From: Rhodospirillaceae bacterium
Lineage (GTDB): Bacteria > Pseudomonadota > Alphaproteobacteria > MPNO01 > UBA2964
Reading direction: 5' to 3'
Length of the DNA stretch: 64,000 nt
Assembly (NCBI GenBank): GCA_002709075.1
Contig: PAPV01000005.1
Location: forward strand, 89,989 to 153,988
Part shown: piece after piece, positions 1 to 29,187 of the stretch
Layout: every line of letters starts with the position of its first letter
How positions within the stretch are numbered: position 1 is the first letter of the stretch
Position numbers and translations under genes: made by a program
Notes under the pieces: generated by a model
Told to the model about the DNA's origin: nothing
What the model saw: the letters and a program-made list of their open reading frames with translations, nothing else
Databases searched by the model: none

Positions 1-443
1 TTTTCTTCATTTGCCTCATCAATGCACAGCATCACGTTTACAAAATTGGTGGCATAATTCTCCCAACCTGCTTGCGAGTCCTGGTGAGGTTTAAAGCCAG
101 AACCACCTGGCATTTTGAAATTGATTTTTTCTTTAAATAAATAGGCAGCTTCACCTAATAACTGTTCAACCATAATTTTCAAAACATTGGTTAAAGTTGC
201 AAACCCGTTGTGGAAAGGAGAAATATATTCTATACGGTTTATAAGTTTTTTATTATCGATTTGGCCGCTCTCATGAAAAACCCAATGTTTTCCCGCCTCT
301 TCGGGTAGTTCTTCAACCTCCATTGCCCATTTATCAATTATCTCAATGTCAGATGAAGAAAAAGCATTATACAATGCACAACATCCGTTAGCATTAAATT
401 CACTAATATGTTGGTGTGTGAGAATAGGTGTGACAATCATCAT
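1..443 (-). CDS. PhyH-family Fe(II)/2-oxoglutarate dioxygenase. The 5' end (ATG at 443-441) is present; the 3' end is cut by the window edge
   Basis: Hand translation of the minus strand gives MMIVTPILTHQHISEFNANGCCALYNAF...FKMPGGSGFKPHQDSQAGWENY. The K-x-PGG...HQD block with the H-x-D iron ligands is the PhyH/phytanoyl-CoA dioxygenase signature. The ORF track does not list it because it runs off the edge. Confidence 0.6.
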   Translation of the reverse strand, partial: MMIVTPILTHQHISEFNANGCCALYNAFSSSDIEIIDKWAMEVEELPEEAGKHWVFHESGQIDNKKLINRIEYISPFHNGFATLTNVLKIMVEQLLGEAAYLFKEKINFKMPGGSGFKPHQDSQAGWENYATNFVNVMLCIDEANEE

Positions 444-535
444 AAATCAAGTTTATCGTTCTAAGTATAATCATTCAACGCTGGGAAAATTGACACATCA
501 ATAAATGTAATCGCTAAACTGTGAGAAAGCTACCT

Positions 536-1675
536 ATGATTGACGCAGATGATTTTTTGAACCCAGCGCTTCAGGCTGGTTTTAATTTTTACACTGGTGT
601 TCCTTGTTCATTTCTAACACCAATAATTAATAGGGTTATCTGCTCTGAAACTACGGAGTATATTGCTGCGGCAAGTGAAGGGGAAGCTGTAGGGATAGCT
701 GCGGGTGCTTGGTTGGCAGGGAAACTCCCTGTTATAATGTGTCAGAACTCCGGCCTCGGGAATGCTGTTAATCCTCTTACCTCTCTTAATTATCCTTTTA
801 AAATACCAGCACTTTTGATTGTTACGTGGCGGGGGGCGGTGGGTTTAGATGATGAACCGCAACATCAGCTTATGGGACAGATCACTAAGGATATATTAAA
901 TATTATGCGTGTTCCGTATGGTATGTTCCCCAATAACAAAGCCTCAATTAACCCTGCAATTGAGAAGGCTATTAGTGAAATTTCTAAAAATAACCTTCCT
1001 TATGCCATGTTGATGAAAAAAGGTTCAATTCAAAACGAGGAAATACAGCCATTAAAATCCGATAATTTTATTTCAGGTGAACTTTATGATTGGACAACTT
1101 CAAAAATTTTTCCTAGCAGGGTTTCGGCAATTAAAAATGCACTTGAAATTCTACCTTCAGATGTAGGAATTATTTCTACCACTGGATATACAGGACGAGA
1201 GCTTTATGAAGTGGCTGATCGAGAACAACACCTATATCAAGTCGGATCAATGGGATGCGCTGCTGGAATGGGGTTTGGAATTGCAATTAATTCAGAGAAA
1301 AATATTTGCGTTTTTGATGGAGACGGAGCAGCTTTAATGAAGCTTGGTACCATGGCTACAGTTGGCGCTTACAAACCTAAAAATTTCATCCACATATTAT
1401 TTGATAATGGGACTTATCAGTCTACCGGCGGACAGCCTACAGTTTCATCAAGTATCAATTTTGCTAAAATTGCAATTGCTTGTGGTTATCGGTTAGCTTT
1501 TTCTTGCAATGATTTAACCCATTTTAATGAAGCGTTAAACAAAAGTAAAATTGATGGTGGCCCCACACTGATTCATATGCGGGTAAGAAAAAAATCTTTA
1601 GTTGTCCCAGGGAGGCCTAAGATCGGTCCAGCAGAAGTTGCTGCACGTTTCAGAGATTTTTTAGCGCAAGAATAA
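536..1675 (+). CDS. ppd: Phosphonopyruvate decarboxylase (ThDP-dependent). Track ORF starts at GTG 521; ATG 536 (MIDADDF...) preferred
   Basis: ThDP-binding motif GDGAALMKLGTMATVGAYKPKNFIHILFDNGTYQ (GDG...NN). Overall length and N-terminus are typical of Ppd/AepY and sulfopyruvate decarboxylase relatives. The context with a PhnW-like transaminase favours Ppd. A GAGAAAG RBS-like element sits 6 nt upstream of ATG 536. Confidence 0.7.
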   Translation: MIDADDFLNPALQAGFNFYTGVPCSFLTPIINRVICSETTEYIAAASEGEAVGIAAGAWLAGKLPVIMCQNSGLGNAVNPLTSLNYPFKIPALLIVTWRGAVGLDDEPQHQLMGQITKDILNIMRVPYGMFPNNKASINPAIEKAISEISKNNLPYAMLMKKGSIQNEEIQPLKSDNFISGELYDWTTSKIFPSRVSAIKNALEILPSDVGIISTTGYTGRELYEVADREQHLYQVGSMGCAAGMGFGIAINSEKNICVFDGDGAALMKLGTMATVGAYKPKNFIHILFDNGTYQSTGGQPTVSSSINFAKIAIACGYRLAFSCNDLTHFNEALNKSKIDGGPTLIHMRVRKKSLVVPGRPKIGPAEVAARFRDFLAQE

Positions 1676-1680
1676 TTTTT

Positions 1681-2823
1681 TTATTTACGATTCAAGTTTT
1701 TCGAATTTAAACCAATTGATGCCAAATAAATAGATATTTCTGAGAGTGCGCGGTCAATATCTGTTTTGTTAATATCGCCAATGCAACCAATTCTGAATGT
1801 TTTTTCCTGTGTGACTGCGCCAGGATAAAGTATTACTCCTTTTTTACGCAACGCCTCGTACATCATTTCAAAATCAAAATTTGGATTTTTTGGAAATCGG
1901 ACAGTTACAATTATTGGTGACTGTTGCATTTTAGATAAGAACAAATTAAAGCCTAATAAGCGTAATCCATCCACAAGCTGGTTACAATTAGCTTGATAAC
2001 GTGTTTCCCTTGCCGAAACACCGCCCTCGTTCTCCAGTTCTACAAGGGCTTGATCGAGTGCGGCTAAGACATGTGTGGGAGGTGTAAACCGCCACTGACC
2101 AGTTTTATCTAAATATTTGGCTTGATCATGCAAATCAAGGCAAAGCGAGTTAGCATTTCCGGCAGTAGTATTTAGGATGTTTGTCTTAATTATTGCATAA
2201 GCAATCCCAGGAACACTTTGCAGACATTTGTTTGACGAAGATATCAGCGCGGTTGCAGGTATTTTCTTGAGATTTATTTTTAAAGCACCAAAACTACTCA
2301 TTGCATCAATGATCATTTCACGTTTAGCATTTCTAACGATTGATGCTATATTCTCTATTGGGTTTAGAATGCCAGATGTGGTTTCACAATGGACTACGGC
2401 GACGTGGGTAATATCTGTGTTGGTTTCAAGTCGGGAGGCAATTTCGCAGGGGTCGGGCTGAATGTCTTCAGGTGTTTTGTACACTTCATATGCTCTGCCG
2501 AGATAATCACAGATTTTAGCCATGCGTTCCCCGTAAACGCCATTAATCAGAATTAAACATTTTCCCATTCTACGTGGCAGCAATGTGCCGAGTGTAGCTT
2601 CAACAGCAAAAGTTCCACTGCCTTGGATTGGAATGCAGTTATAGCCTTCTTCTGCCCCTGCAAGTTTACAAAGTTTCGATCGGACTCTAGCGGTCATCTC
2701 TATGAACGTTTTGTCTCTCGATCCTATATCGCGATTTAATGCCTTCCTAACTGTGACTGACGTTGTCAATGGACCCGGTGTGAGGAGAATTTCTCCACGT
2801 TTTCTCTCTTCGTTAGTTTGCAT
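1681..2823 (-). CDS. phnW: 2-aminoethylphosphonate:pyruvate aminotransferase (class V, PhnW-like AEP transaminase)
   Basis: Strong PhnW-type blocks: LLTPGPLTTS near the N-terminus, IDAMSSFG, SSSNKCLQSVPG (PLP lysine region), WRFTPPTH and IYPGAVTQEKTFRIGCIG. Convergent with ppd, with only 5 bp between the stop codons. Confidence 0.8.
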   Translation of the reverse strand: MQTNEERKRGEILLTPGPLTTSVTVRKALNRDIGSRDKTFIEMTARVRSKLCKLAGAEEGYNCIPIQGSGTFAVEATLGTLLPRRMGKCLILINGVYGERMAKICDYLGRAYEVYKTPEDIQPDPCEIASRLETNTDITHVAVVHCETTSGILNPIENIASIVRNAKREMIIDAMSSFGALKINLKKIPATALISSSNKCLQSVPGIAYAIIKTNILNTTAGNANSLCLDLHDQAKYLDKTGQWRFTPPTHVLAALDQALVELENEGGVSARETRYQANCNQLVDGLRLLGFNLFLSKMQQSPIIVTVRFPKNPNFDFEMMYEALRKKGVILYPGAVTQEKTFRIGCIGDINKTDIDRALSEISIYLASIGLNSKNLNRK

Positions 2824-2993
2824 TCTTCCTTGCCTAACTCGTTCCTATCATGCATGAATTTCTAGTATGCACATGTTGACAACTTTATGCCAAGCATACT
2901 TGTCTTTTGAAAACATGGGAGGAACCAATAAGCCATAATACTTGGATACACCGAATTGTACGGAAGGGGGTAAGACCACTTTTAAAGACATCG

Positions 2994-3539
2994 ATGCATC
3001 CCAATTTTCTTACAACACTTAGATTTCTTACCGGAATGTTTTCCGCTTTCCTATTCTCAATCGACAATTTCTATTGGAGATGGGAAGCAATTTTGATACT
3101 TACAATTTCTTTGTTACTAGATCGTGCAGATGGAGAATTTGCCCGTCAAACCGGCCGCACAAGTAAATTTGGTCATAAATATGACTTGGTTGCTGATGGG
3201 GTTTCTAACGCGGCTTTGTTCGCCGGTATAGGGTACGGAATGCCCTCAAACTCTTTAGGCGGTTATGCGATGGAGGTCGGTATGGCTGCTGGAATTGCAA
3301 TTCTAGGCACAGAATTTCTGGTAATGCGAGCACATGATACTGGAATAAAAAATACTAAGGATATTGGAAATTTTTATGGTTTTGATCCTGATGATGGAAT
3401 GTTTCTCGTCCCTGTGGTGCTTGCATTTCATTGGGAAAATGCATTACTCATAATTACGGTAATCGGAGCTATAATTTCATTGCTAGTTACATTAGTTATG
3501 GTTGTTCGTGGATCCAAAAATTCTGCAGGAAAACTGTGA
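2994..3539 (+). CDS. CDP-alcohol phosphotransferase-family membrane protein (small, ~181 aa; ORF extends to a TTG at 2907)
   Basis: Family motif D-G-x2-A-R-x8-G-x3-D-x3-D is present as DRADGEFARQTGRTSKFGHKYDLVADG. The N-terminal PNFLTTLRF matches the usual TM1 entry of this family. Multiple TM helices. No SD seen for either start, so the start is uncertain. Confidence 0.7.
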   Translation: MHPNFLTTLRFLTGMFSAFLFSIDNFYWRWEAILILTISLLLDRADGEFARQTGRTSKFGHKYDLVADGVSNAALFAGIGYGMPSNSLGGYAMEVGMAAGIAILGTEFLVMRAHDTGIKNTKDIGNFYGFDPDDGMFLVPVVLAFHWENALLIITVIGAIISLLVTLVMVVRGSKNSAGKL

Positions 3540-6155
3540 ATGTGGGAATGTTACTTAGGTAGACTTGCCAATAAGGTTGTGCATCTTTCGGTAAAACATC
3601 ACATAATAATTATTACCTCATATGTTTTGATTGCCGGATACTTATTTTGGTACGGTGCGGTAAACCTAGCAATCAATACAGACAATGCTGATCTTTTGTC
3701 TAGAGATCTTCCTTTCCGCACTCACCACATTGAAATAAAGGAGTCATTTCCACAGCTTTCTAACAATATTATTGTGGTCGTAGATGCGTTGACAACTGAG
3801 CAGGCGGATTATGCAGCTCTAAAACTTTTTAACGCTATTAAAGCAAAAAAAAAGTTATTCCCTGCTGTATTTTATCCTGCAGGAGAGAGATATTTTACTA
3901 AAAATAGCCTTTTATTTCTTGATAAGGTTCAACTCAGACATTTAATGGAACACCTAATAGACCATCAGTTTTTTATTGGTCGATTGGCTGCTGACCCGAG
4001 CCTTCGTGGATTATTCAATATTTTAACTCTTGCCCTTAATCAGGTGAAAAATAGTTTTGAAAAAAATGAATTAATTAGGTTCATGGATATGCTAACCAGA
4101 TCCCTCCAATCAGGACTCGAAAGACCGAAGGCAAGTTTTTCTTGGCAAAATTTTATAGGTCAAGATGCAGTTCAAGATCCAAAAAATCGCAGATTTATTA
4201 TCCTTAAACCAAATCTTGATTATGGTTCCTTACAACCTGCACAAAACTCAATGTCAGAAATCCGGAGGCTAGCCTCAAGTTTGAAACTTACCCCTGCTTT
4301 CGGTATTCGAGTGCGGCTCACTGGGACCGTTCCAATGGAACAAGAGGAGTTAGCCAGTGTGGTTGAAGGCATGGGTGTAGCCGGAGTGACATCATTTGTT
4401 TTGGTGTTAACACTTTTATTTGTGGCGATGCGATCATTTAAAATGGTTATTTCGGCTATATTAACATTAATTGCGGCCCTTGGCTGTACCGTCGGATTTG
4501 CGGCATGGGCTGTAGGCAGTCTGAATTTAATATCCGTTGCATTTATAGTTCTTTTCATAGGGCTGAGCGTAGATTTTGCCATTCATTTTTGTTTGCGAAT
4601 TCGGGAAGAAATAATTGATGGGAAAAGAATGTCAGGTTCGGCACCTAGAGCGGCTAGAAAGATAGCAGGCGCGCTCTGTTTGTGCACCGCTACTGCAATG
4701 ATAGCTTTCTTCAGTTTTTGGCCAACAAATTATGTAGGTCTGGCAGAACTTGGGATTATCTCAGGTGCAGGCATGCTTATTGCTCTAATAGTTAATCTAA
4801 CTTTTTTTCCTGCGCTTCTCAAAATGCTTGGGTTTTTTAATAGGTCAACTTCAATATGCAAAAAACCCATTGTTATAAATGAGGCCTGGCAAGTGAGGCA
4901 CTCCTTCAAGATTTTGATATTTGCTTCAGGCCTAACGATTGGGGCATCACTTCTCGTGGTGGATGTTCGTTTTGATTTTGATCCATTAAATCTAAAAGAT
5001 CCAGAAACTCAGTCGGTTTCAACCATGTTGGATTTAATGAATAAATCTGATTTATCGCTTTACTCTGCGGACATTTTAACCAAAGGGCCAACCGAAGCGA
5101 TAAAATTAACTCAAGAACTGAAAAATTTACCCACCGTCGGTAAAGTAGTAAATGCATTTAGCTTCATTCCTGTAGAGCAATCAGAGAAGCTATCTATAAT
5201 TTCTGAGGCTAAACTTCTTATTTTACCAGCGCTGTATTTGCCGAAGATACCCAAACCGAGTGAAATAGAAACTCGTAAGTCAATTGCTCAATTTCTTGAT
5301 TCGGCTACAAAAATGGATCATCAAAAACAACCCAAAATTGCATTTGCAGCTAAAAGTCTGATTAAAAGCATGCAACATTACAACCTAGAAAATCTGAAGG
5401 AATATAAACAACTAGAAGAAAATTTATTGGGTAATTTACCGAACTCAATAGAAAAACTAAAGGAGATGCTTTCCGCCTCCAGCGTTGTATTTGATGACGT
5501 GCCAATTAGTATCCGTCAACGTTTTGTTGATAAAGATAATCGCTGGCGGGTGGAGGTACATGCGGCAAAAAAAACAAGAGATCCAGATAATTTAATAACA
5601 TTCGTAGATGAACTGAAATCAGTGGCGCCGACGGTAACTGGGTCGCCTGTAATTATAGTTGAAGCAAGTCGCGTCGTTGTTCAGGCATTTTTGGTGGCGG
5701 CTGTCATATCCATCGGGGCAATTTCAATCTTGTTGCTCATACTGTTGAGAAGAATTGACGATGTGCTTTTGACATTTGTTCCTTTGGTATTGGCTACTTT
5801 ATTGACTGGCGCAGCAAGCGTTTTGCTTGATATGCCATTCAATTTTGCTAACATAATCGTATTGCCACTAATATTTGGTTTAGGGGTTTCCAGTATGGTG
5901 CACTTGATCATGCGGTCTGATGATTTTAGCATTCCAACCGCAATTTTTTTAACTTCAACCCCACGAGCAGTAAAATTTAGCGCTCTTACTACAATCGGAT
6001 CCTTCTCCACTATCGCACTCTCGAGTCATCCAGGAACCTCTAGCATGGGGGTGCTACTTGCCGTTTCCATCGGCTTCACTTTGGCTTCTTCTTTGATTTT
6101 GCTTCCGGCACTACTAGTATTGAGAAAGAACTTCATAATTAGTCGTGAAAATTAA
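3540..6155 (+). CDS. MMPL/RND-superfamily lipid exporter (HpnN-like, 871 aa)
   Basis: The architecture is TM1, a large periplasmic domain, a 5-TM bundle (GVAGVTSFVLVLTLLFVAMRSFKM...LSVDFAIHF, SSD-like), a second periplasmic domain and a second TM bundle. Size and layout match MMPL and HpnN-type transporters. Confidence 0.75.
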   Translation: MWECYLGRLANKVVHLSVKHHIIIITSYVLIAGYLFWYGAVNLAINTDNADLLSRDLPFRTHHIEIKESFPQLSNNIIVVVDALTTEQADYAALKLFNAIKAKKKLFPAVFYPAGERYFTKNSLLFLDKVQLRHLMEHLIDHQFFIGRLAADPSLRGLFNILTLALNQVKNSFEKNELIRFMDMLTRSLQSGLERPKASFSWQNFIGQDAVQDPKNRRFIILKPNLDYGSLQPAQNSMSEIRRLASSLKLTPAFGIRVRLTGTVPMEQEELASVVEGMGVAGVTSFVLVLTLLFVAMRSFKMVISAILTLIAALGCTVGFAAWAVGSLNLISVAFIVLFIGLSVDFAIHFCLRIREEIIDGKRMSGSAPRAARKIAGALCLCTATAMIAFFSFWPTNYVGLAELGIISGAGMLIALIVNLTFFPALLKMLGFFNRSTSICKKPIVINEAWQVRHSFKILIFASGLTIGASLLVVDVRFDFDPLNLKDPETQSVSTMLDLMNKSDLSLYSADILTKGPTEAIKLTQELKNLPTVGKVVNAFSFIPVEQSEKLSIISEAKLLILPALYLPKIPKPSEIETRKSIAQFLDSATKMDHQKQPKIAFAAKSLIKSMQHYNLENLKEYKQLEENLLGNLPNSIEKLKEMLSASSVVFDDVPISIRQRFVDKDNRWRVEVHAAKKTRDPDNLITFVDELKSVAPTVTGSPVIIVEASRVVVQAFLVAAVISIGAISILLLILLRRIDDVLLTFVPLVLATLLTGAASVLLDMPFNFANIIVLPLIFGLGVSSMVHLIMRSDDFSIPTAIFLTSTPRAVKFSALTTIGSFSTIALSSHPGTSSMGVLLAVSIGFTLASSLILLPALLVLRKNFIISREN

Positions 6156-7144
6156 TGTTTGCGATACGTGTTTTATGTTTGCTGATTGGAGTCGTCCTCT
6201 TAGCCATCATAATTGTTTCAACTGATATATATGCAGCCATAAAATTGATCCAGGGAATGGGATGGGGAATTTTGTTGGTAACGGTAGCTTATAGCGTAAT
6301 CTCATTTGGTGATACGCTATCTTTTCACGTGTTAACCCATAAGATACCCATGACCATAAGAAATTTTTACGAGCTGTGGAAAATAAGGTTAGTCGGTGAG
6401 GCCTATAATCAAGTATTGCCTCTCGGGGGTCTGGGAGGTGAGCCAATAAAAGCGGTTCTCTTAAAGCAGTCAACGGAAATGGATTTGGAAGAAATCACAG
6501 CCTCACTTTTCGCTGCAAAAACGGTAAACATCGTAACCCTAATTATCTTTTTGGCAGTTGGATTTCTTCTGATGGGTTGGGAAAAGAGAATTTCTCCAGA
6601 ATTTTTTCGGGCAGCTGGATTAGGATTAGCGGTTTTGAGTCTGGGTATACTGGGTTTCTTTCTTATTCAACGAATGGGTTTGTTGTCCGTTCTTTTCAGT
6701 AGACTGTTACATCGACTGAAAGGACGCTTTTTAAATGTAATTGCAATAATTTCAAACATTGAACACCGATTATACGAATGTTACCGCTATCGAAAATATC
6801 GTTTCCTAGCTTCGCTTTTTGTCGCTCTTATTGTTTGGGTTGTAAGCATAGTTGAAGTGTATTTAGTACTTTATTTTTTAGGGTATCCAATTAGTTGGAC
6901 AGAGGCATGGATTATAGAATCCGGAGCTCAATTAGTGAAAGCAGGCACCTTTTTTATTCCAGGAAGTATAGGAGCCTTTGATGGAGCATTTTTATTGCTG
7001 TGTGGAATGATTACTGGTTCGCCGGTGGTGGGTGCAGCCGTTGCGGTTGTAAGGAGGCTTCGCGAAATTTCATGGACTGCCTTTGGATTTGCTATCGGGA
7101 TATTCAGGCTGAAAAAATATGAACAAGGAAAGAAAAAATATTAA
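6155..7144 (+). CDS. Flippase-like / UPF0104 (LPG_synthase_TM) integral membrane protein, HpnL-like
   Basis: About eight predicted TM helices, 329 aa, with a conserved RLVGEAYNQVLPLGGLGGEP segment typical of the flippase-like domain. Its ATG overlaps the stop of the MMPL gene (TAATG), which suggests translational coupling. Confidence 0.6.
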   Translation: MFAIRVLCLLIGVVLLAIIIVSTDIYAAIKLIQGMGWGILLVTVAYSVISFGDTLSFHVLTHKIPMTIRNFYELWKIRLVGEAYNQVLPLGGLGGEPIKAVLLKQSTEMDLEEITASLFAAKTVNIVTLIIFLAVGFLLMGWEKRISPEFFRAAGLGLAVLSLGILGFFLIQRMGLLSVLFSRLLHRLKGRFLNVIAIISNIEHRLYECYRYRKYRFLASLFVALIVWVVSIVEVYLVLYFLGYPISWTEAWIIESGAQLVKAGTFFIPGSIGAFDGAFLLLCGMITGSPVVGAAVAVVRRLREISWTAFGFAIGIFRLKKYEQGKKKY

Positions 7145-7146
7145 AG

Positions 7147-7770
7147 TTAATTGGCAGCAAGAAGCCGTCTAGTTTTGGAATTTAAAACGATGGTTAATGC
7201 TTTTGTCCCCCCGGTTGTTAGAATTTTTCTGTATTCAGACCGTCTAGTTGCTAGCTCACTAATGCCACCCGCTAAAATTATATCTATCACACGCCAGACA
7301 CCATTGGTCTCTAGAAGAACGTATGCAATTTGAATTGGCTTGCTGCGTTTGTTGACTATTTGAGTGGTTATAACACGCGATCCACTCGGTCCAAGAGTGT
7401 TAGATAAAGTAATAAATTTTTGACCAGAAAAACTATTAAAACGCAACGCGTAGTTGGCAGCACTATAATTACGAAAAGCCTCAACTAGGTTCTTTTGTTC
7501 AATTAACTTTGCTTTACGCCAATGGTTACCACTAATAAGTTTAACCATCCCCTTTAAGTCAAAAACTTCTTGAACTAGCTCTCTTAGATTTTTATAGCGT
7601 CCTTGCAGCCCCAGATTATTTGCTGTCTTCATTGTATGCAATAAGTTCAAGTGAAATTTTTTTATTTGTAATACGGGTCTGTTCTCGGCGCGTGCGCCCG
7701 CAGACAATACGACCAAAATTATTAATAAAAATTGGAACAAACGTTTTTGTTTTCTATAAATTTGCTTCAT
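7147..7770 (-). CDS. MlaC/Ttg2D-family periplasmic phospholipid-binding protein (HpnM-like). The track ORF extends to 7818
   Basis: Signal peptide (FQFLLIILVVLSAGARA) followed by a ~190-aa soluble domain with the Ttg2D/MlaC pattern (NLRELVQEVFDLKGMVKLISGNHW...). The start at MKQIYRK is preferred over the upstream MFYKL. Confidence 0.6.
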   Translation of the reverse strand: MKQIYRKQKRLFQFLLIILVVLSAGARAENRPVLQIKKFHLNLLHTMKTANNLGLQGRYKNLRELVQEVFDLKGMVKLISGNHWRKAKLIEQKNLVEAFRNYSAANYALRFNSFSGQKFITLSNTLGPSGSRVITTQIVNKRSKPIQIAYVLLETNGVWRVIDIILAGGISELATRRSEYRKILTTGGTKALTIVLNSKTRRLLAAN

Positions 7771-8007
7771 GGTTAATTTGAGTGGCCCTTTGTTGTAATA
7801 TGTTAACTTGTAAAACATTTTTTACCTTATAAACGCAACCTGTAGAAAACTTAATGACAGATGGTGAATCTACTCTATTATCCTAAGGGAATAAGTGATT
7901 TAATCGGTAACGGATGAAACAGTTAGATATTTGTATTTGAGTGCCAGGTTTATTGATGATGATTCTAAATGAATAGTTATACTAAAAAAGTGAGTTAATT
8001 CTTTCAG

Positions 8008-8844
8008 ATGTTGAGTATGGATTTTATTCTAAGAGCCTTCATTCGATCGTGGAAATTGGTAGCAGTATCTATATTCTGTTTGTCAGTTTCCACATCATTT
8101 GCAACAGCATCGAAAATTTACACCACAACAGAGGTTGTTGCTCCCTATAAAATTGACTCTATAGATACAAATGACCCACTTGAGAGTGTAAATAGGGTAG
8201 TTTTTCATTTTAATGATATTATCTACTCATTTGTATTACGCCCTTTAAGTAAGGTTTACGACAAAATACTACCTGACTTTGTTCAGGCAGGCGTCCATAA
8301 CGCTCTGAACAATTTGAATTCACCAGTAATTTTAGCGAACGATCTATTACAAGGTGAATTTGGACGAGCTAAGATCACAATACAACGTGCCGTTATAAAC
8401 ACAACGGTGGGCGTAGGCGGTTTGTATGATGCAGCTTCTAAAATTTGGAAAATACCCATGCACAAAGAAGATTTTGGGCAAACATTCGCAGTTTGGGGTG
8501 TTCAAGAAGGTTTTTATTTAGTGTTACCAATCTTTGGTGCTTCAAATCCGCGTGACGCAACGGGACTAATTGTCAACATGTATGCAGATCCATTTTCTCA
8601 CTATCTAAGAAACATTGGCGAAAATGATGCTGCCATTGCGCGCACCGCGGTTGCAGGTTTAGACAAATTTTCTGAGGTAACGGATGATTTGGAAAAATTA
8701 AAGAAAACTTCGGTTGACTATTATGCAGCAGTTCGCAGTATTTACAGACAAAAGCGCGCGGTTGAAATAAAAAACAGGTCGCACAGAAAAGGCGTATCTA
8801 TTCCAGATTTACATTATGACTTAAATGCTGAGTTACTAAATTGA
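8008..8844 (+). CDS. mlaA: MlaA/VacJ-family outer-membrane lipoprotein
   Basis: Signal sequence, then the characteristic NDPLESVNRVVFHFND...DKILPDFVQ...NLNSPVILANDLLQG blocks of VacJ/MlaA. Confidence 0.8.
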   Translation: MLSMDFILRAFIRSWKLVAVSIFCLSVSTSFATASKIYTTTEVVAPYKIDSIDTNDPLESVNRVVFHFNDIIYSFVLRPLSKVYDKILPDFVQAGVHNALNNLNSPVILANDLLQGEFGRAKITIQRAVINTTVGVGGLYDAASKIWKIPMHKEDFGQTFAVWGVQEGFYLVLPIFGASNPRDATGLIVNMYADPFSHYLRNIGENDAAIARTAVAGLDKFSEVTDDLEKLKKTSVDYYAAVRSIYRQKRAVEIKNRSHRKGVSIPDLHYDLNAELLN

Positions 8845-9846: not shown

Positions 9847-11097
9847 TCAGGCAGCAGTATTTTCTTTTTGCTCCGATAGAATCCGTGAAACAGGTTTATC
9901 GTCGATTGGTAAATGCAGTAACGATGCCACTATCCCGGCACTGATAATCAACCACCAGGCATAGTCATAAGATCCAGTATGATATTTTATTATACCACCC
10001 AACCATACTGATGTGAAGCTTCCAACCTGATGGCTGAGAAATACTAATCCGTAAAGAGTTGCAAGATAGCGCGGTCCAAATACTTCTGCCACGATACCTG
10101 AGGTTAAAGGTACCGTTGCCAACCATAAAATACCAACCGAACAGGCGAATAAAATAACACTTAATTCAGTTTTTGGGAGAATAAAGAATACAAGAAAAAC
10201 TGTTGATCGAGCCGAATAAATAAATGCAAGCAAATACTTCTTTCTTAAAAATCCGCCAAGAAACCCGGAAGCTTGAGTACCAAGCATGTTAAAAAATCCT
10301 ATGAAGGCAATAGCGGTTGCTGCCATAGCGCCACCAACGGCTGTGGCATTTAAATAATTTTCTAAGTGGTTATTTATGAATTGAACTTGAAATCCACAAA
10401 CAAAGAAAGCGACAGTCAACAACCAAAAGCCACGATGACCTGCCGCTTCTTTTATAGCATCTCCGAGACTTTGACTGTCCTTTTTGGATAAAATGCCTTT
10501 GGCAGCACTTGCCATAGTCAGTGCAAATGGAACGACCAGTAAAGCCATAGTGCCAAGAACAATGGTTGCGTATACCCAACCTTTATAAGAAATTAGATAA
10601 TGTGTTAGGGGAACTATTAGCATCTGGCCTGCTGTACCTCCCGAAACAACAATACCAAGCCAAAAAGTCCGCCATTTTTCCGGAGCGACGCGGCCAACAA
10701 TTGATAATAACATTGGAAGTGCAATACCGGCTGACCCAAGTCCGATGAAGATTCCGACATTAAGCACCAATCCGAATTCAGATGTCGATTGTGACATCAT
10801 GAACAACCCAAAAGAGTAAAGCAAGCCGGATAGAATTAAAACACGAATTGGGCCCCAACGATCGGCGGCCGCACCCAGAAAGGGCGCGGCACAGCCATAA
10901 ATTAATAACTGGAGGCCGGTTGCGAAAGACATCACTCTTACATCGGTCCCCCAACCAAGGGCTTCGGAGACTGGGCGTAAAAACATTCCCATGCTTTGTC
11001 GACCACCATAGGCAAATAGAATGATACTTATCGCGCAAATCAACACGATGAATGGGTTATGCCAAATCGTTGACTTAATTATTTCTGCCCTCCACAC
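9847..11097 (-). CDS. MFS transporter (paralog 1 of 3 in tandem)
   Basis: Twelve predicted TM segments. The N-terminal block YGGRQSMGMFLRPVSEALGW and the LPMLLSIVGRVAPEKWR motif are shared with the next gene. Confidence 0.75.
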   Translation of the reverse strand: MWRAEIIKSTIWHNPFIVLICAISIILFAYGGRQSMGMFLRPVSEALGWGTDVRVMSFATGLQLLIYGCAAPFLGAAADRWGPIRVLILSGLLYSFGLFMMSQSTSEFGLVLNVGIFIGLGSAGIALPMLLSIVGRVAPEKWRTFWLGIVVSGGTAGQMLIVPLTHYLISYKGWVYATIVLGTMALLVVPFALTMASAAKGILSKKDSQSLGDAIKEAAGHRGFWLLTVAFFVCGFQVQFINNHLENYLNATAVGGAMAATAIAFIGFFNMLGTQASGFLGGFLRKKYLLAFIYSARSTVFLVFFILPKTELSVILFACSVGILWLATVPLTSGIVAEVFGPRYLATLYGLVFLSHQVGSFTSVWLGGIIKYHTGSYDYAWWLIISAGIVASLLHLPIDDKPVSRILSEQKENTAA

Positions 11098-11116
11098 ATT
11101 CTCACAAAATCAACAA

Positions 11117-12340
11117 TCACGCTGTTTGCGCAAGTCTTTCCACTGGAGTTTCCTTAATAGGCAGGTGAAAAAGGGCAGCAAGTGCGCCTCCCAGTATGAT
11201 AACCCACCACCAGATTTCATAGGAGCCAGTTGAGTCACGAACTACACCACCCATCCAAGTACTAAATGCTCCACCAATTTGATGACTAAGGAAAGCTATT
11301 GCGTATAGCGTTGCCATATAACGCGGTCCAAAAAGAGTGGATATGATACCTGCTGTGAGAGGGACTGTAGCTAGCCATAATACACCTATACATGAAGCAA
11401 AAATGTACACTGAAGTTTGGCTAATAGGCGCTAGAAAAAACGCAAGCATTACCAGTGAACGACCTACGTAGAGAAATACAAGAAGATTTTTTTTTCGAAA
11501 ATGTCCGCCCAGTTTACCCGCGAGCGCTGTACCAATCATGTTCGAAAATCCAATTAATGCTATGGCATGTGCGCCTATTGTTACACCGGTTCCTGTATCT
11601 TCAAGAAATTTGGGAAGGTGGGTAACAATAAATTGCACTTGGAAACCACAAGTAAAAAATCCTAGGCAGAGATACCAATAACTACGCGCTTCCCTTGCCT
11701 CTGAGAGGGCTTGCCCCAAAGTTTGCGTGTCTTTTTTTTGATCCAGGGCGTTTCCACTGGCTTTTCCAACAATTATTGCCATGGGAACAATTGCAAAAAT
11801 AAATGACGCTAAAATAATAACGGCATCAGTCCAGTCCATTCGTGTTAGTAAAAATCCATTAAGTGGAACAAGAAACATTTGTCCGCCTGTTCCGCCGGCG
11901 GATACAATCCCAAGCCATAGACTGCGTTTTTTTTCTGGTGCAACTCTTCCAACCACTGATAGAAGCATTGGTAGCCCGCAACCTGATGCTGCTAGTCCGC
12001 TAAGAACACCAATGCTAAGAGCGAGATGTAGTTCAGATACGGCATTGCTTAATTGGTACATCCCAAATGCATAGAGTGCACCCCCAATAATAAGCATCTT
12101 GATCGGCCCAAGCCATTTATCTGCAATCATGGAAACAAAGGGAACACTTATTCCGATAATCAGGGTTTGAAGACTGACGGCAAAAGAAAATGGTTCAACT
12201 CTTCCACCGCTGATAGAATCACTTATTGGAACGAGAAAAATGCCAAAACTTTGACGGGTCCCGTATGAAATTAATATGATAAGTGTGCATAGTAAAAGCA
12301 CAATGTATGGACTCTTCCACAAGGTGTTTGTTTCTGACAT
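11117..12340 (-). CDS. MFS transporter (paralog 2 of 3)
   Basis: Closely similar to paralog 1 (LPMLLSVVGRVAPEKKRSLWLGIV, HLPI...P tail). Confidence 0.75.
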   Translation of the reverse strand: MSETNTLWKSPYIVLLLCTLIILISYGTRQSFGIFLVPISDSISGGRVEPFSFAVSLQTLIIGISVPFVSMIADKWLGPIKMLIIGGALYAFGMYQLSNAVSELHLALSIGVLSGLAASGCGLPMLLSVVGRVAPEKKRSLWLGIVSAGGTGGQMFLVPLNGFLLTRMDWTDAVIILASFIFAIVPMAIIVGKASGNALDQKKDTQTLGQALSEAREARSYWYLCLGFFTCGFQVQFIVTHLPKFLEDTGTGVTIGAHAIALIGFSNMIGTALAGKLGGHFRKKNLLVFLYVGRSLVMLAFFLAPISQTSVYIFASCIGVLWLATVPLTAGIISTLFGPRYMATLYAIAFLSHQIGGAFSTWMGGVVRDSTGSYEIWWWVIILGGALAALFHLPIKETPVERLAQTA

Positions 12341-12359
12341 ATTTACTAGTTTCAGTTAA

Positions 12360-13595
12360 TCAACCAATCTTAGTTTGAAGCATCACTTTCCGAGTAACAG
12401 GCTTTTCATCAATTGGCCAGTGAATAAAAACTGCAACAAAACCCAGTCCAACCGCTGTCCACCAAACCGGATCGTAGGATCCTCCCCACCCACGTACAAT
12501 ACCACCAAAAGTGATGCCCACAAAACTTCCTAATTGATGGCTTAAGAATACAAATCCGTAAAGGGTTGCTAAATATTGTGTCCCGAAAATTTGAGCTACA
12601 AGCCCACTCGTTAGGGGAATTGTCCCAAGCCAGGTCAAACCCATCAAAGCAGAAAATATGATTGTGCTAACATCGGTTATAGGCATTAGCACATATACAA
12701 CGATACATAAGGACCTCATCATATACAATCCTGCAAGTAAGTATTTTTTACTATATCTGCCCCCTAAAGCACCCCAAACAAAGCTTCCTAGAATGTTAAA
12801 GAGACCAATTAAGGCAAGTGACCAAGCCGCTATCTCCGCAGATATACCAATATCCTTAAGATACAGAGGTAAGTGACTGGCAATAAAAAGTGTTTGGAAA
12901 CCACATACGAAGAAACCCAGAACTAGTAACAAATACCCACGATGATGAAGGGATTCAAAAATTGCTTCGGTCACACTTTGTCGTCGATCGAATTGGTCAT
13001 TTGAAATTATTGGCTTTCCCGCAATGGGTATTATGAGAGGTATTATAATCAGCATTATACACGATAATATTATCAGTGAACTAGCATATCCACTATCGAT
13101 CATAAAATAATGGGCAAATGGTACTACAATTACCTGCCCGCTAGAGCCACCAGCGCTGGCAATTCCCAAAAACAGACTGCGGCGCTTGAGGTGAATGCTG
13201 CGTCCAATTACTGATAGTATAATCGGGAACCCAGTAGCACTCATGGCAAGGCCAGTGAGAACACCCGTACTAACGTGTATTTCAATCTCAGTTGTTGAGG
13301 TGGCCATTAGGTATAGACCAAGAGCATATAACGCTGCACCAGCACTAATTACTCTGCCAGCACCGTATCTGTCTGCTACCACGCCCCATAGTGGTTGTGA
13401 TAGGCCCCAAACAAGAACCTGTAATCCCATTGAGAATGAAAACACAGAAATATTCCAACCATTCGATTCAGAAATTGGGCCTAAAAAAAGACCATATGTT
13501 TGGCGAATTCCAAAAGAGCTTAATAATATTAATGTGCCACAGATGAGAATTAGAGAGGGTGTTTTCCAACCAATTTTCTGTTCCCCAAAATCCAT
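12360..13595 (-). CDS. MFS transporter (paralog 3 of 3, more diverged)
   Basis: Same topology and conserved blocks (FGIRQTYGLFLGPISE, ILSVIGR...KRRSLFLGIASAGG) as paralogs 1 and 2. Confidence 0.75.
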   Translation of the reverse strand: MDFGEQKIGWKTPSLILICGTLILLSSFGIRQTYGLFLGPISESNGWNISVFSFSMGLQVLVWGLSQPLWGVVADRYGAGRVISAGAALYALGLYLMATSTTEIEIHVSTGVLTGLAMSATGFPIILSVIGRSIHLKRRSLFLGIASAGGSSGQVIVVPFAHYFMIDSGYASSLIILSCIMLIIIPLIIPIAGKPIISNDQFDRRQSVTEAIFESLHHRGYLLLVLGFFVCGFQTLFIASHLPLYLKDIGISAEIAAWSLALIGLFNILGSFVWGALGGRYSKKYLLAGLYMMRSLCIVVYVLMPITDVSTIIFSALMGLTWLGTIPLTSGLVAQIFGTQYLATLYGFVFLSHQLGSFVGITFGGIVRGWGGSYDPVWWTAVGLGFVAVFIHWPIDEKPVTRKVMLQTKIG

Positions 13596-15389: not shown

Positions 15390-15681
15390 TGTATTAACAT
15401 AGTATTTTTACAAATTATGAAGGTAACCATACGGTAAGTTCGGTCAAGGGCTTAAACACAAGTTACATAATCAAAAAGAATTATAAAAATTCAGACTAGC
15501 TTGACATCTGTTTTAACTGAAATCACTTTCTAATCGCTAATTTGGTTTGTATTGATTGATTGGCTAAAAATTTTATCATGTTTAATTTATTTAAAAATTT
15601 GTTTTAAATAATCATGGAGTGATATTTTTTGTTCTTAACAAAAGCAATTGCCTCGCCCACGTATCAACTGTGGAGTGGAAG

Positions 15682-16812
15682 ATGATAGCAATTATCGGCG
15701 GTGGAATCTGCGGGTTGGCCATCGGTTGGCGTCTCGCTCAAGAAGGATTCTCTGTTACCATAGTGGATAAGGGAAAAGCTGGAATGGAGGCTTCCTGGGC
15801 TGCCGCTGGTATGCTTGCCCCACTAATCGAAGCAGAGCATGCGGAGGAGATGCTTTTGCCTCTAGCAATAGAAAGTCGCAAGCGATGGCCGCAATTTGCG
15901 GCAGAGCTAGAGAACTTCACTGGTATTAATGTTGATTATCGTACAGAGGGAACTCTACAAATTGCGCTTCATCGTGATGATCAGGAGGCACTAGAACATC
16001 GTTATTCATTTTTCAAGAAGAATAACTTTGAAATCGAAAAGTTATCCGGTTCGCAGGTTAAAGCACTACAGCCTCATCTCTCCCACAATGTTACAGGTGG
16101 AATTCTAAGTCCAGAGGATCATCAGGTTGACAATCGCCTGGTAGTTTCTGCTTTACTAAAAGCCTTTAAGAAGGCTGGTGGAATTTTACATGAGAATACA
16201 GAGGTTGATGAAATATGCACGAATAATGGACGTGTTAATGGTATTTGTATGGGTGGCGAAAAAGTGGTAGTCGAACATCTGGTATTATCGGCAGGAGCTT
16301 GGTCACGGAATATCCCTGGCATTCCAAAAGATGCACGTCCTCCGGTTAGGCCACTTAAAGGCCAAATGTTGGCACTTGAAATGCCGAGTAAAATGCCATT
16401 GCTTGATCATGTTATTTGGGGTCCTGGTAATGCTATAGTATCAAATATTTATTTGGTACCAAAAAGTGATGGGAGGTTGATTATTGGAGCGACAGTGGAG
16501 GAAATGGGGTACGATACCAGAATTACTTGTGGTGGTTTATTTGAGTTGCTGAGAGCAGGGTGGGAAGTGTTGCCCAGTATATATGATTTGCCAGTTTTAA
16601 GTAGTTGGGCGGGTTTACGTCCTGCCAGCCGAGATGATGCTCCTATTCTGGGTCCTTCAGGGGTGGATGGGCTAACCATCGCCACCGGTCACCATCGAAA
16701 CGGTATTTTACTTGCACCTATTACAGCCTCAGAAATAACTGCTTATATCACCAACCAGAAGGTTTCGCCGTTAATTAAACCCTTTCAACTCAACCGATTT
16801 CAGAAACCTTAG
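15682..16812 (+). CDS. thiO: Glycine oxidase ThiO (FAD-dependent). The track ORF starts at 15619; MIAIIGGG preferred
   Basis: GGGICGLAIGWRLAQEGFSVTIVDKG dinucleotide fold, DAO-family body, and position immediately upstream of thiS-thiG-thiE. Confidence 0.8.
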   Translation: MIAIIGGGICGLAIGWRLAQEGFSVTIVDKGKAGMEASWAAAGMLAPLIEAEHAEEMLLPLAIESRKRWPQFAAELENFTGINVDYRTEGTLQIALHRDDQEALEHRYSFFKKNNFEIEKLSGSQVKALQPHLSHNVTGGILSPEDHQVDNRLVVSALLKAFKKAGGILHENTEVDEICTNNGRVNGICMGGEKVVVEHLVLSAGAWSRNIPGIPKDARPPVRPLKGQMLALEMPSKMPLLDHVIWGPGNAIVSNIYLVPKSDGRLIIGATVEEMGYDTRITCGGLFELLRAGWEVLPSIYDLPVLSSWAGLRPASRDDAPILGPSGVDGLTIATGHHRNGILLAPITASEITAYITNQKVSPLIKPFQLNRFQKP

Positions 16813-16843
16813 ACATCGTCATGAGTAAAGGTTTTTTTAAAAG

Positions 16844-17062
16844 ATGTCCTTTATGAGTAAAAAAATAAATCTTAATGGGAGGATGATATATTTTCCGGGA
16901 GTCTATTTGTCTGACTTGCTTACGTCTCAGGGACTGGATATGGATTTAGGTGGTGTTGCAGTTGTAGTTAATTCTACAATAGTTTCACGGTCCAAGTGGA
17001 AAAAAATTAAAATTAATGCAGGCGATAAAATAGAAATCGTCCATATTGTTCGCGGAGGTTAG
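16844..17062 (+). CDS. thiS: Sulfur carrier protein ThiS
   Basis: ~70 aa ending in GG (…[10 protein letters not shown]), placed between thiO and thiG. Confidence 0.8.
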
Positions 17063-17067
17063 AATTA

Positions 17068-17850
17068 GTGGAACAAACAACAGATCAAAAACTTAGTATT
17101 GCAGGAAAAACTCTAAATTCTCGATTGTTGATCGGAACGTCTTTATATCCAAACCAGCAAGTTATGATGGATGCACTTGCTGCGAGTGGAGCTGAAATTG
17201 TCACTGTTGCTGTTCGGAGGGTAAGCCTTGATGGTGGTGGCGAAAGTGTATTTGACTTATTAAAAGGAAAATATCATTTTTTACCTAACACAGCTGGCTG
17301 TTTTACTGCTAGCGATGCCGTTTTTACTGCGGAACTGGCCCGTGAGGCTCTTGAGACTAACTGGATTAAGTTAGAAGTAATAGGAGATGATGAAACACTC
17401 TTTCCCGATGTCGAACAGCTACTTCTGGCTTCGGAAGAATTGGTTAAAAAGGACTTTGTTGTATTAGCATACTGTAATGATGATCCCATATCCTGCAAAA
17501 AATTAGAGGATTTAGGTTGTGCAGCTGTGATGCCGCTAGGGGCGCCAATAGGGTCGGGTATGGGAATACGAAACCCATACAATCTGCAAATAATTCGGGA
17601 ACAATGTTCAGTGCCACTTATTGTAGATGCTGGGGTCGGAACAGCGTCTGACGCTGCCCAAGCAATGGAAATTGGGATGGATGGTATATTACTTAATTCA
17701 GCCGTTGCGGGTGCAAGAGATCCGGTTCGTATGGCAAAAGCTATGCGTTTAGGCATTGAAAGTGGACGGCTCGCTTTCGAGGCCGGGCGAATCCCACGGA
17801 AACTTTATGCGTCATCTTCAACGTCACTGAACGGAATGATCGATCTTTGA
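17068..17850 (+). CDS. thiG: Thiazole synthase ThiG (GTG start with GGAGG 9 nt upstream)
   Basis: 260 aa with the TIM-barrel ThiG pattern ([42 protein letters not shown]). Confidence 0.9.
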
Positions 17851-18476
17851 GAAATCAACACAATCATCTTCCTTACCCACCCTTTCTTCTGATAACCGAT
17901 AGAAAACAAGCCTGCTTGCCTCTAACGGATATTTGTGCGGCAGCTTCGCGCGCCGGCTGCAAATGGTTTATGGTTAGAGAGAAGGAAATAGGAGCTAATG
18001 ATCTCACTAGATTGACTCGTAGGATAATTGAAGTAGTTGATCCAGAAGCACGAGTAGTTGTTAATGGAAATGTTAGTTCGGCACTAAAAGCAGGCGCCAG
18101 TGGTATGCATTTTCAGTCGATAGAACTGGCTATAGAAGCTCGAAAGACCCTACCCTGTCACTTCTTAATCGGGTATTCTGCTCACAGTATTTCGGATGCG
18201 GCCGCCGCTGAACGTGCTGAATTGGATTATGTGACCTTAAGTCCAATTTTTAATACGAAAAGCAAACCTGGCTATGGACCCATTTTAGGGCTCAGTGGCC
18301 TCCGTTCTGCTGTAGTCGCACTTAATATTCCAATCATCGCTCTGGCTGGTATTTGTCATCAAAATGCTTCCGACGTTATATCTTCTGGCAGTGCAGGTTT
18401 TGCAGTGATGGGAGAGGTGATGCGGTCACCAAGACCGGAACCGACAACATCGAAATTTGTTGAAGAATACCTATGA
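17847..18476 (+). CDS. thiE: Thiamine-phosphate synthase ThiE
   Basis: 209 aa, overlaps the thiG stop; PFLLITD start and [15 protein letters not shown] motif. Confidence 0.8.
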
Positions 18477-28532: not shown

Positions 28533-28581
28533 TCTTCAAGGAAATTCGTTTTATAAATCTAGCATAGGGCGGCGTGGACTA

Positions 28582-29187
28582 ATGCTCGTACTTTCTTCTC
28601 CTTCTGGGGCAGGAAAAACAACGATTTCCCGACATCTAATGGAACTTGATACCCAACTAACTATGTCTATCTCGGTAACAACCCGTCATAAACGGCCAGG
28701 AGAAAAGAACGGTAAAGACTATTATTTCGTTGATCCAACAGAATTTAATTTGATGATTAATCGGAGGGAGTTACTAGAACATGCCAAGGTATTTGGCAAT
28801 TATTATGGGACACCCGCAATTGCTGTGGAGAATGCATTAAAAAATGGTCGAGATGTGATATTTGATATTGATTGGCAAGGTGCACAACAAATTGCAGAAC
28901 GAGCAAGGGAGGATTTAGTAAGTGTTTTTATTTTACCACCCTCAACTGCAGAGTTAGATCGGAGACTGCACCGTCGTGCTCAAGATCCTGATGAGGTGGT
29001 CGCAGCTCGTATGGCTCGTGCACCCGACGAAATGAGTCACTATGCTGAATATGACTTCATCATAATTAATCATGATATAGATGAAAGTATTCGCAAGGTT
29101 CAGGCAATTTTAGCCTCTGAAAGAATTCGTCGTCGTCGATTGGTAGGACTTACTGAATTTGTGAAGCGCCTTCAAGAAGGTTATTAA
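28582..29187 (+). CDS. gmk: Guanylate kinase (start uncertain; the track ORF begins at 28507)
   Basis: P-loop SSPSGAGKTT and the GMP-binding region YYFVD. Confidence 0.85.
   Translation: MLVLSSPSGAGKTTISRHLMELDTQLTMSISVTTRHKRPGEKNGKDYYFVDPTEFNLMINRRELLEHAKVFGNYYGTPAIAVENALKNGRDVIFDIDWQGAQQIAERAREDLVSVFILPPSTAELDRRLHRRAQDPDEVVAARMARAPDEMSHYAEYDFIIINHDIDESIRKVQAILASERIRRRRLVGLTEFVKRLQEGY

Follow-up and report, generated by a model that had tools for sequence, protein, structure and literature searches.

The closest described counterpart of the genes discussed here is the canonical pepM-ppd-aepT operon for 2-aminoethylphosphonate (AEP), represented by aepXYZ of Bacteroides fragilis and, among the loci that we compared (numbered with the prefix L), by the triads L073-L089, L097 and L099. 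A 64,000-nucleotide stretch from a Rhodospirillaceae bacterium (contig PAPV01000005.1 of assembly GCA_002709075.1, positions 89,989 to 153,988; the window in what follows, with positions counted from its first nucleotide) carries at its left end a phosphonopyruvate decarboxylase gene, ppd, and an AEP:pyruvate transaminase gene, phnW, whose products belong to the same families as the corresponding enzymes of that operon, at equivalog level. In sister clusters of this locus the likeness goes further: ppd is immediately preceded by pepM, the gene for phosphoenolpyruvate (PEP) mutase, whose stop codon overlaps the ppd start. The window itself differs from the canonical arrangement in having no pepM, in having phnW convergent with ppd instead of co-directional with it, and in having both genes monocistronic, with two divergent promoter regions, within a cluster of hopanoid (hpn) genes.

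Other known systems supply points of comparison. That PepM occurs fused to the nucleotidyltransferase PntC, and that AEP is activated by nucleotidyl transfer, is established (Rice et al. 2019, PMC6697681). The sister clusters encode such a PepM-NTP_transf_3 (PntC) fusion, a separate NTP_transf_3 gene lies two genes from ppd, and the logic of a CMP-phosphonate head group is common to both systems; unlike the Pnt pathways, however, the window's clade has the fusion deleted, and the nucleotidyltransferase (NTase) that stands alone there shares only 27% identity with the PntC domain of the fusion. With the hpn clusters of Rhodopseudomonas palustris, Zymomonas and Burkholderia our locus shares HpnD, squalene-hopene cyclase (SHC), HpnH, HpnA, HpnN and HpnM, all above their cutoffs, but a phosphonate module is inserted between hpnA and hpnN, and hpnC, hpnE, hpnI/J/K, hpnO and hpnP were not seen within reach. 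'Phosphonate-terpene' hybrid clusters have been mentioned for Nitrosococcus (PMC7285500), for gene cluster family GCF 731 with Nitrosococcus oceani and Nitrosococcus wardiae in the inventory of Li and Horsman (PMC8942020), and for Roseomonas spp. (PMC8776678); these mentions are antiSMASH notes, pepM-centred mining and passing remarks, and give no product. Our locus likewise combines squalene/hopene and AEP genes, but its variant has no pepM and would be invisible to pepM-based mining. Among the papers searched, none connects hopanoids to phosphonopyruvate decarboxylase, and none describes a phosphonate head group on a bacteriohopanepolyol. An AEP-capped lipid of this kind has been speculated upon in the literature, its product has never been characterised, and the pepM-less form is new. 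We propose that ppd and phnW are part of a conserved AEP head-group module in the hopanoid cluster of marine Rhodospirillales, that pepM has been excised from this cluster, and that phosphonopyruvate supply and head-group transfer to lipid proceed as set out below; taken as a whole, this account is likely to be right.

The identities given to the two genes in a preliminary description made from the sequence alone stand up against curated equivalog cutoffs: the pair is a bona fide Ppd and a bona fide AEP transaminase. Ppd scores 424.2 bits against TIGR03297 (cutoff 312.5), covering model positions 1-360 of 360, and has the TPP_enzyme_N (PF02776) and TPP_enzyme_C (PF02775) domains and the thiamine pyrophosphate motif GDG...N ('DGDGAALMK...LFDNG'); its PDB relatives are 9iz3 A/B, a 'putative phosphonopyruvate decarboxylase'. 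The reading frame at 521-1675, checked for disruption, is intact. PhnW exceeds the cutoffs of NF010006 (486 bits against 296), TIGR02326 (462.3 against 400.8) and TIGR03301 (457.7 against 360.8). Its closest solved relatives are AEP transaminases (PDB 7e7g, 393 bits; 1m32, 297 bits), and its pyridoxal phosphate lysine ('SSSNKCLQ') is aligned with the lysine of 7e7g.

Both genes are also under strong purifying selection. In moderately diverged pairs of pepM-less loci the ratio of non-synonymous to synonymous substitution rates (dN/dS) is 0.026-0.074 for Ppd, compared with 0.04-0.05 in pepM-carrying pairs; pepM-less pairs give 0.07-0.10 for PhnW, about 0.06 for the PhyH-family dioxygenase encoded beside ppd and 0.06-0.11 for the NTase, values similar to those of SHC and HpnH and of pepM-carrying pairs. 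At the 69 alignment positions that are near-invariant in 49 pepM-linked Ppds, the window's Ppd keeps 67 residues, and its clade keeps 887 of 897. This retention of residues, together with the low dN/dS, implies that the pair is not a decaying remnant and argues against a change of substrate. On the evidence of their sequences, ppd and phnW encode intact enzymes that would convert phosphonopyruvate to phosphonoacetaldehyde and the latter to AEP.

An exact-match search for the Ppd protein returned copies of this contig from several TARA Oceans assemblies (L001-L006), which reach 10 kb further to the left. Across these six contigs ppd is identical and phnW differs at one or two non-synonymous sites, implying a nearly clonal population; one such difference is T at window position 1697 against G at L001 11162, just inside the 3' end of phnW, which changes one C-terminal residue.

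Joining the window to the left extension of L001 gives the gene order hpnD, shc, hpnG, hpnH (-), hpnA, NTP_transf_3, PhyH (-), ppd, phnW (-), CDP-alcohol phosphotransferase, hpnN, hpnL-like, hpnM (-), mlaA; of the hpn genes, hpnN, the hpnL-like gene and hpnM are inside the window and the rest lie just to its left. In L001, HpnD (304.8 bits, cutoff 278.6), SHC (763.7, cutoff 431.1), HpnH (549.2, cutoff 225) and HpnA (471.1, cutoff 367.7) are all recognised, with shc and hpnH 2.7-6.5 kb upstream of ppd. HpnG and the HpnL-like protein fall just below their curated cutoffs, and HpnN does not reach that of the stricter model NF052374 (692.7 against 1100). The squalene route is represented by hpnD alone: L001 1-10000 contains no second SQS_PSY gene and no FAD desaturase, and hpnC and hpnE are not found within 10 kb. 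To judge from these neighbours, the ppd/phnW pair is no stray piece of an AEP operon; it sits midway in a cluster for hopanoid biosynthesis and export. The preliminary description was right that the other neighbour of ppd is a dioxygenase (the PhyH-family match) and not pepM; what it overlooked was the hopanoid cluster, the membership of that dioxygenase in the conserved module and the fact that pepM was lost cleanly, in this lineage, from a recognisable slot.

That no PEP mutase lies beside the pair, leaving the pathway locally incomplete, was also correctly seen. The PepM motif EDKxxxxxNS is absent from the six frames of the 64-kb window, PF13714 matches none of the 50 window open reading frames (ORFs) that were scanned, a PepM query in blastp matches no window ORF of at least 70 amino acids, and none is encoded in the 10 kb that L001 adds on the left. 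The place that the gene once held can be identified from relatives. Gene content was classed by blastp at 82 non-redundant GTDB loci around Ppd homologues and at 80 JGI metagenome loci around PepM homologues. In type a, to which the window belongs, a hopanoid cluster contains PhyH (-), ppd (+) and phnW (-) but no pepM; type b is that cluster with pepM-pntC between PhyH and ppd; in type c, found in cyanobacteria, Burkholderiales, Streptomyces and others, pepM, ppd and phnW form a co-directional triad. In the sister clusters a pepM-pntC fusion gene of 1.7 kb, encoding about 550 amino acids, stands exactly between PhyH and ppd, with its stop overlapping the ppd start (L023-25, L027, L033, L038, L049, L061, L095, L096, L102-111 and L119).

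The spacer between PhyH and ppd is correspondingly 76-218 bp in most pepM-less clusters, compared with about 1,800 bp in those that carry pepM; in L012 it is 1.1 kb and holds an unrelated ORF. L028 and L033 are collinear with about 80% nucleotide identity, and 130 bp in L028 replaces 1,758 bp carrying pepM-pntC in L033, the right edge of the indel being the ppd start codon. No PepM remnants were found by tblastn in the spacers of the window, L012, L032, L035 and L040. Among ppd loci with a hopanoid core, 21 of 32 are without pepM and 11 of 32 have it, making the pepM-less form the majority. These comparisons indicate that pepM is missing through real, clean and recurrent lineage-specific loss from a defined slot.

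The window's Ppd falls, on a neighbour-joining tree, in a clade with L009-L019 and L022 (each of type a; 57-62% identity) that is uniformly pepM-less; the closest GTDB species representative has at most 62% Ppd identity. The order of the cluster is conserved at 53-62% Ppd identity in many metagenome-assembled genomes (MAGs) of marine Rhodospirillales, complete chromosomes and JGI contigs, the complete relatives with a pepM-less cluster including OX638326.1 and OZ244953.1; OZ253533.1 and OZ245847.1 carry pepM. Beyond these, AEP genes stand beside hpn genes in no fewer than four different gene orders, spread over three classes (the Alpha-, Beta- and Gammaproteobacteria), as at L057 and L065 (Alphaproteobacteria), L053, L068 and L069 (Acetobacteraceae), L081 (Pararobbsia), L087 (Nevskiaceae) and L138. 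Strains in culture that carry the form with pepM include Roseomonas aerilata DSM 19363, R. oryzae, Pararobbsia alpina and Nitrosococcus oceani.

A second group of Rhodospirillales hopanoid clusters has no phnW after ppd, with pepM present or not (L023, L025-L028, L030, L032, L033, L035, L036, L040 and L041). The AEP genes have been reshuffled repeatedly in and out of the hopanoid cluster, and phnW must lie elsewhere in the genomes of this group. An antisense ORF that gives a second CDP-alcohol transferase match in the phnW-less loci is probably spurious.

How might the products of this module work together? We suggest that a LicC/PntC-like NTP-transferase, PhyH, Ppd, PhnW, a CDP-alcohol phosphotransferase and the HpnL-like protein would constitute a six-gene head-group module between hpnA and hpnN. 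Ppd would form phosphonoacetaldehyde and PhnW would form AEP, which the PhnY*-like PhyH may hydroxylate at C1 to give 1-hydroxy-AEP. The NTase would activate AEP as CMP-AEP, the CDP-alcohol transferase would move the phosphonyl group onto the hydroxyl of a membrane lipid, and HpnL-like, HpnN, HpnM and MlaA would flip and export the product. Head-group transfer of this Kennedy type is carried out in Tetrahymena by an ethanolamine/choline phosphotransferase that uses CMP-AEP. The pairing of an NTase with a CDP-alcohol transferase also recalls archaeal IPCT/DIPPS (PDB 4mnd), in which a small head group is activated and then transferred: the best curated matches of our two proteins are the two halves of this bifunctional enzyme, although the similarity is weak (23-55 bits).

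The CDP-alcohol signature D-x2-DG-x2-AR-x8-G-x3-D-x3-D is complete in the cluster's transferase, in 'DRADGEFARQTGRTSKFGHKYDLVAD', and the best NCBIfam and PDB relatives of this protein are archaetidylinositol-phosphate/PIP synthases, IPCT/DIPPS and AF2299. Its gene opens a run with hpnN and hpnL, and an hpnL-like gene accompanies the CDP-alcohol transferase and NTase genes in AEP modules of other classes (L081, L084, L087, L138 and L176). The standalone NTase is recognisable by its NTP_transf_3 fold only; it shows neither the similarity to a characterised PntC nor the fusion to PepM that would place it among PntC proteins, and it has no relative in the PDB, Tde-PntC (6pd1) included. The window encodes a second CDP-alcohol phosphatidyltransferase at 44035-44595 (+; 186 amino acids; PF01066, E = 6.6e-30), in a housekeeping context (purM/purN, DUF2066, AI-2E transporter, hda), which is probably pgsA and contrasts with the divergent cluster-encoded transferase at 2907-3539.

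Of the candidate lipid acceptors, a bacteriohopanepolyol is favoured because the phosphonate genes are interleaved with hpn genes and because the linkage recurs in several gene orders and across three classes; diacylglycerol is a serious alternative. That marine Rhodospirillales make a bacteriohopanepolyol esterified with AEP or 1-hydroxy-AEP, and that Nitrosococcus, Roseomonas, Pararobbsia and Nevskiaceae, where the linkage is also found, may do so too, is a tentative suggestion, nearer to doubtful than to probable. The AEP module and the hopanoid genes could instead be neighbours only, kept together by shared envelope-lipid trafficking (HpnN, HpnM, MlaA) or by co-regulation, with AEP going onto diacylglycerol or some other acceptor to give a phosphonolipid or a phosphonylated surface polymer. 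We consider this somewhat unlikely, but it has substance: the acceptors of characterised CDP-alcohol phosphotransferases, to judge by the closest models and PDB entries, are diacylglycerol, inositol phosphate or compounds of glycerol type. Two observations that favour it also make a non-hopanoid acceptor quite conceivable. The AEP module, in the form CDP-alcohol transferase-hpnL-NTP-transferase-pepM-ppd-phnW, is present in L084, L156, L168, L176 and L178 with no shc, hpnG or hpnH within 10 kb, and we found in the literature no report of a phosphonate-bearing, or indeed any phosphorus-containing, hopanoid. Against mere adjacency stands the position of the phosphonate genes, which are interleaved between hpnA and hpnN and not appended to the cluster. 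The linkage is seen, moreover, in rearranged gene orders and across three classes, and has been flagged independently for Nitrosococcus and Roseomonas (PMC7285500, PMC8776678). The same neighbourhood has thus been reassembled repeatedly, which argues for functional coupling.

Given the strong purifying selection on Ppd and PhnW, a source of phosphonopyruvate must exist. We think it probable that this is a pepM elsewhere in the genome, a location that would be in keeping with the separation of hpnC and hpnE from hpnD in this genome. Several observations weigh against this. A PepM search with the L033 query gave, among the top 120 listed, no match on a contig agreeing in length with those of pepM-less genomes, L033's own protein being absent from the database, and a check of the accessions of 10 NCBI PepM matches found none from the source MAG. 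Six sampled PepM matches all had an adjacent ppd or belonged to pepM-carrying hopanoid clusters. The preponderance of the pepM-less form is somewhat unexpected if pepM has simply moved, and the loss of the fusion gene also took away the PntC domain, leaving the divergent NTase described above. Finally, the only orphan PepM-PntC type found (L125-127, from the JGI metagenome scan, with matching GC) represents a different phosphonate branch. The indirect searches for pepM were low-powered, since the top 120 matches were listed and some assemblies are not indexed.

The orphan type deserves separate mention. At L125 4530-13163, and likewise in L126 and L127, PepM-PntC is encoded without ppd within about 10 kb and is flanked by genes for a citrate-synthase-family protein, enolase, an APH-type kinase and a TauD dioxygenase; it looks like a different early phosphonate branch that does not use Ppd. 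We rejected it as the missing pepM of the pepM-less genomes, as its neighbours mark this other branch; homologues of these orphan genes, moreover, occur on no contig of matching length.

Could these genomes instead manage without any PEP mutase? Ppd and PhnW would then act on sulfopyruvate, leading through sulfoacetaldehyde to taurine, or on scavenged phosphonate, or on phosphonopyruvate from a PepM-independent route. Such an explanation, which is unlikely, would accommodate the excess of pepM-less loci and the failure of every search to find a complementary orphan pepM, and orphan ppd genes do occur outside hopanoid clusters as well (L031, L048, L055, L063 and L066). The sulfonate route, put forward earlier as a fallback, finds no support in the models of ComDE-type sulfopyruvate decarboxylase: Ppd scores 136.3 bits on the beta model TIGR03846 (cutoff 221.5) and 107.6 on the alpha model TIGR03845 (cutoff 147.95), both far below cutoff. 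The 97-99% retention of pepM-linked invariant residues speaks against it too, as does selection as strong as in pepM-carrying relatives, with no signature of a substrate switch, and the combination of an NTase and a CDP-alcohol transferase is chemically reasonable for a phosphonate, not for a sulfonate. Nor does the absence of a local pepM require such a route, for the hopanoid pathway is split in the same way and dispersed pathway genes are normal here. The stronger claim, that phosphonopyruvate arises with no PEP mutase at all in the pepM-less lineages, which are the majority, is, in our estimation, distinctly improbable. A pepM located elsewhere is the source that we prefer.

The PhyH-family dioxygenase bears on whether the locus builds AEP or degrades it. 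The part of it encoded in the window matches Pfam PhyH with E = 1.7e-7, and the HxD motif is seen as 'HQDS' in the translation; the full-length protein of 251-252 amino acids in L001 scores 142 bits on NF052437, the PhnY-type methylphosphonate hydroxylase, for a cutoff of 500, which makes it a relative and not an equivalog. The gene adjoins ppd or pepM in almost all related clusters. A 1-hydroxy-AEP head group is known from a Bdellovibrio sphingophosphonolipid, according to the work cited in PMC8942020, and the role of PhyH is more likely a biosynthetic one, in making such a head group. A catabolic system, in which PhnW deaminates imported AEP and the PhnY*-like dioxygenase initiates oxidative C-P cleavage, would suit a marine organism, as AEP is available in the sea, and PhnW does pass the catabolic model TIGR02326 while the best curated relative of PhyH is a phosphonate hydroxylase of the PhnY type. 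This is nevertheless very unlikely. The PhnZ partner of PhnY*/PhnZ oxidative catabolism (an HD phosphohydrolase) is absent from the window and the 10 kb to its left, as are PhnX, PhnA, PhnY aldehyde dehydrogenase, C-P lyase and a phosphonate ABC transporter, and no phosphonate catabolism or transport gene was found among the scanned ORFs of the window; Ppd, moreover, has no catabolic role, and pepM is translationally coupled to ppd in the sister clusters. A further possibility, that losing pepM inactivated an AEP pathway of which ppd and phnW are the decaying remains, is suggested by the absence of pepM and the precision of its deletion, but is effectively refuted by full-length ORFs across a clade diverged to 57-62% identity, by dN/dS of 0.03-0.10 and by intact catalytic motifs.

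The convergent junction of ppd and phnW turns out to be unrelated to the loss of pepM. As described, the TAA stop of ppd (1673-1675) is followed by ttttt and then by TTA (1681-1683), the stop of phnW on the minus strand. In relatives the spacing of the two stops ranges from -9 to +10 bp whether pepM is present or absent, most commonly with the stops interlocked as CTAG, CTAA or TTAA (-4). The suggestion that convergence is a departure tied to the missing pepM fails, in that phnW converges on ppd also in the pepM-carrying loci L024, L049, L057, L061 and L065. A shared bidirectional terminator can likewise be discarded. On both strands, the folds predicted for 1640-1720 and 1610-1750 show no more stability than those of shuffled sequences (z = +1.19, -0.27, -0.47 and -0.13) and give only a 6-bp A/U stem, and a scan for consensus terminators found nothing at 1600-1750. 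No regulatory device is detectable at the junction, and read-through into the opposite gene is plausible. Of the 10 convergent gene pairs in the window, 4 have their stops overlapping by 4 bp or separated by 5 bp or less; such close junctions are commonplace in this compact genome, and that of ppd and phnW is an ancestral, inherited compact layout without an intrinsic terminator. Each of the two genes is a single-gene unit with its own divergent promoter region (444-535 for ppd, 2824-2906 for phnW), and these two regions share only short, chance-level repeats.

Other tight junctions in the window are those of the hpnL-like gene and hpnM (2-bp gap), of gmk and ksgA (28507-29187 and 29184-30050, stops interlocked by 4 bp) and of hda and rnd (45622-46326 and 46323-47645, also interlocked by 4 bp).

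Features of the AEP module and the adjoining hopanoid genes in the window (cutoffs follow scores after a slash)
Feature	Position	Strand	Remarks
PhyH-family Fe(II)/2-oxoglutarate dioxygenase	1..443	-	N-terminal 147 aa; cut by left window edge; divergent from ppd
PhyH-ppd divergent intergenic region	444..535		92 bp; pepM-pntC slot of sister clusters
ppd, phosphonopyruvate decarboxylase	536..1675	+	379 aa from ATG 536; alternative GTG start 521 (384 aa)
Spacer between convergent stops	1676..1680		5 bp, ttttt; no terminator hairpin
phnW/aepZ, 2-aminoethylphosphonate:pyruvate transaminase	1681..2823	-	380 aa
CDP-alcohol phosphotransferase	2907..3539	+	PF01066 E = 2.5e-15; gene callers start at ~2994 or 3036; divergent from phnW
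hpnN, RND/MMPL hopanoid transporter	3540..6155	+	TIGR03480 871.2/751.85; Pfam MMPL
hpnL-like membrane protein (LPG_synthase_TM / flippase-like)	6155..7144	+	PF03706 E = 3.8e-27; TIGR03476 HpnL 159.4/195.65; TIGR00374 54/43.2
hpnM, MlaC-family periplasmic lipid-binding protein	7147..7818	-	TIGR03481 167.6/160.1; Pfam MlaC
mlaA-like outer-membrane lipoprotein	8008..8844	+	Syntenic cluster end; Pfam MlaA E = 2.7e-66; position kept in relatives

Some features of the cluster vary among relatives. In L007 (7536-9062, minus strand), and likewise in L009, L011 and L013, a gene for a 508-amino-acid amidohydrolase lies between the NTase and PhyH genes; it is absent from the window's contig. Its best curated relatives are 5'-deoxyadenosine, methylthioadenosine (MTA) and S-adenosylhomocysteine (SAH) deaminases (175 bits, under cutoff), and as a neighbour of hpnH/hpnG it could deaminate adenosylhopane, giving bacteriohopanepolyols of the inosylhopane type, which were described recently. 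In some relatives, L095 among them, there are two SQS_PSY genes as well as a glycosyltransferase. At L001 1274-2493, between an oxoprolinase/hydantoinase gene and hpnD, about 1.2 kb contains no ORF of 60 amino acids or more. To the right of the cluster, three tandem MFS_1 transporter genes (window 9847-13595, minus strand; 416, 407 and 411 amino acids) come right after an nfuA-like gene and are syntenic with the right flank of the cluster in relatives, two being visible in L007 and L009.

The remainder of the window is core chromosome, with fab, lpt, pur, gat and ribosomal genes, topA and others. It includes a run of thiO-like, thiG and thiE genes (15619-18476, plus strand), and no part of the window matches a TPP riboswitch at the Rfam gathering thresholds; scans for tRNA genes and for other Rfam families gave no matches.

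Phosphonates make up a large share of marine dissolved organic phosphorus, but little is known of who produces them and in what molecular forms; hopanoids are important geological biomarkers, and the survey of their side-chain diversity is not yet finished. Surveys that use pepM as their marker would miss the 21 of 32 hopanoid-linked ppd loci that lack it, unless pepM lies elsewhere in those genomes. The locus thus poses the question of where the substrate originates for a Ppd that has been kept over tens of percent of divergence without a PepM encoded in cis. If these lineages do without a PEP mutase, there would be a second route to the C-P bond, or a salvage of phosphonates into lipids. An AEP-bearing hopanoid, if it exists, would be the first phosphorus-containing hopanoid, a new class of composite bacteriohopanepolyol and an unrecognised marine reservoir of C-P compounds. 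A conserved module, maintained by selection, in which AEP synthesis is brought together with the making and export of hopanoids points to an uncharacterised class of lipid in abundant marine Alphaproteobacteria.

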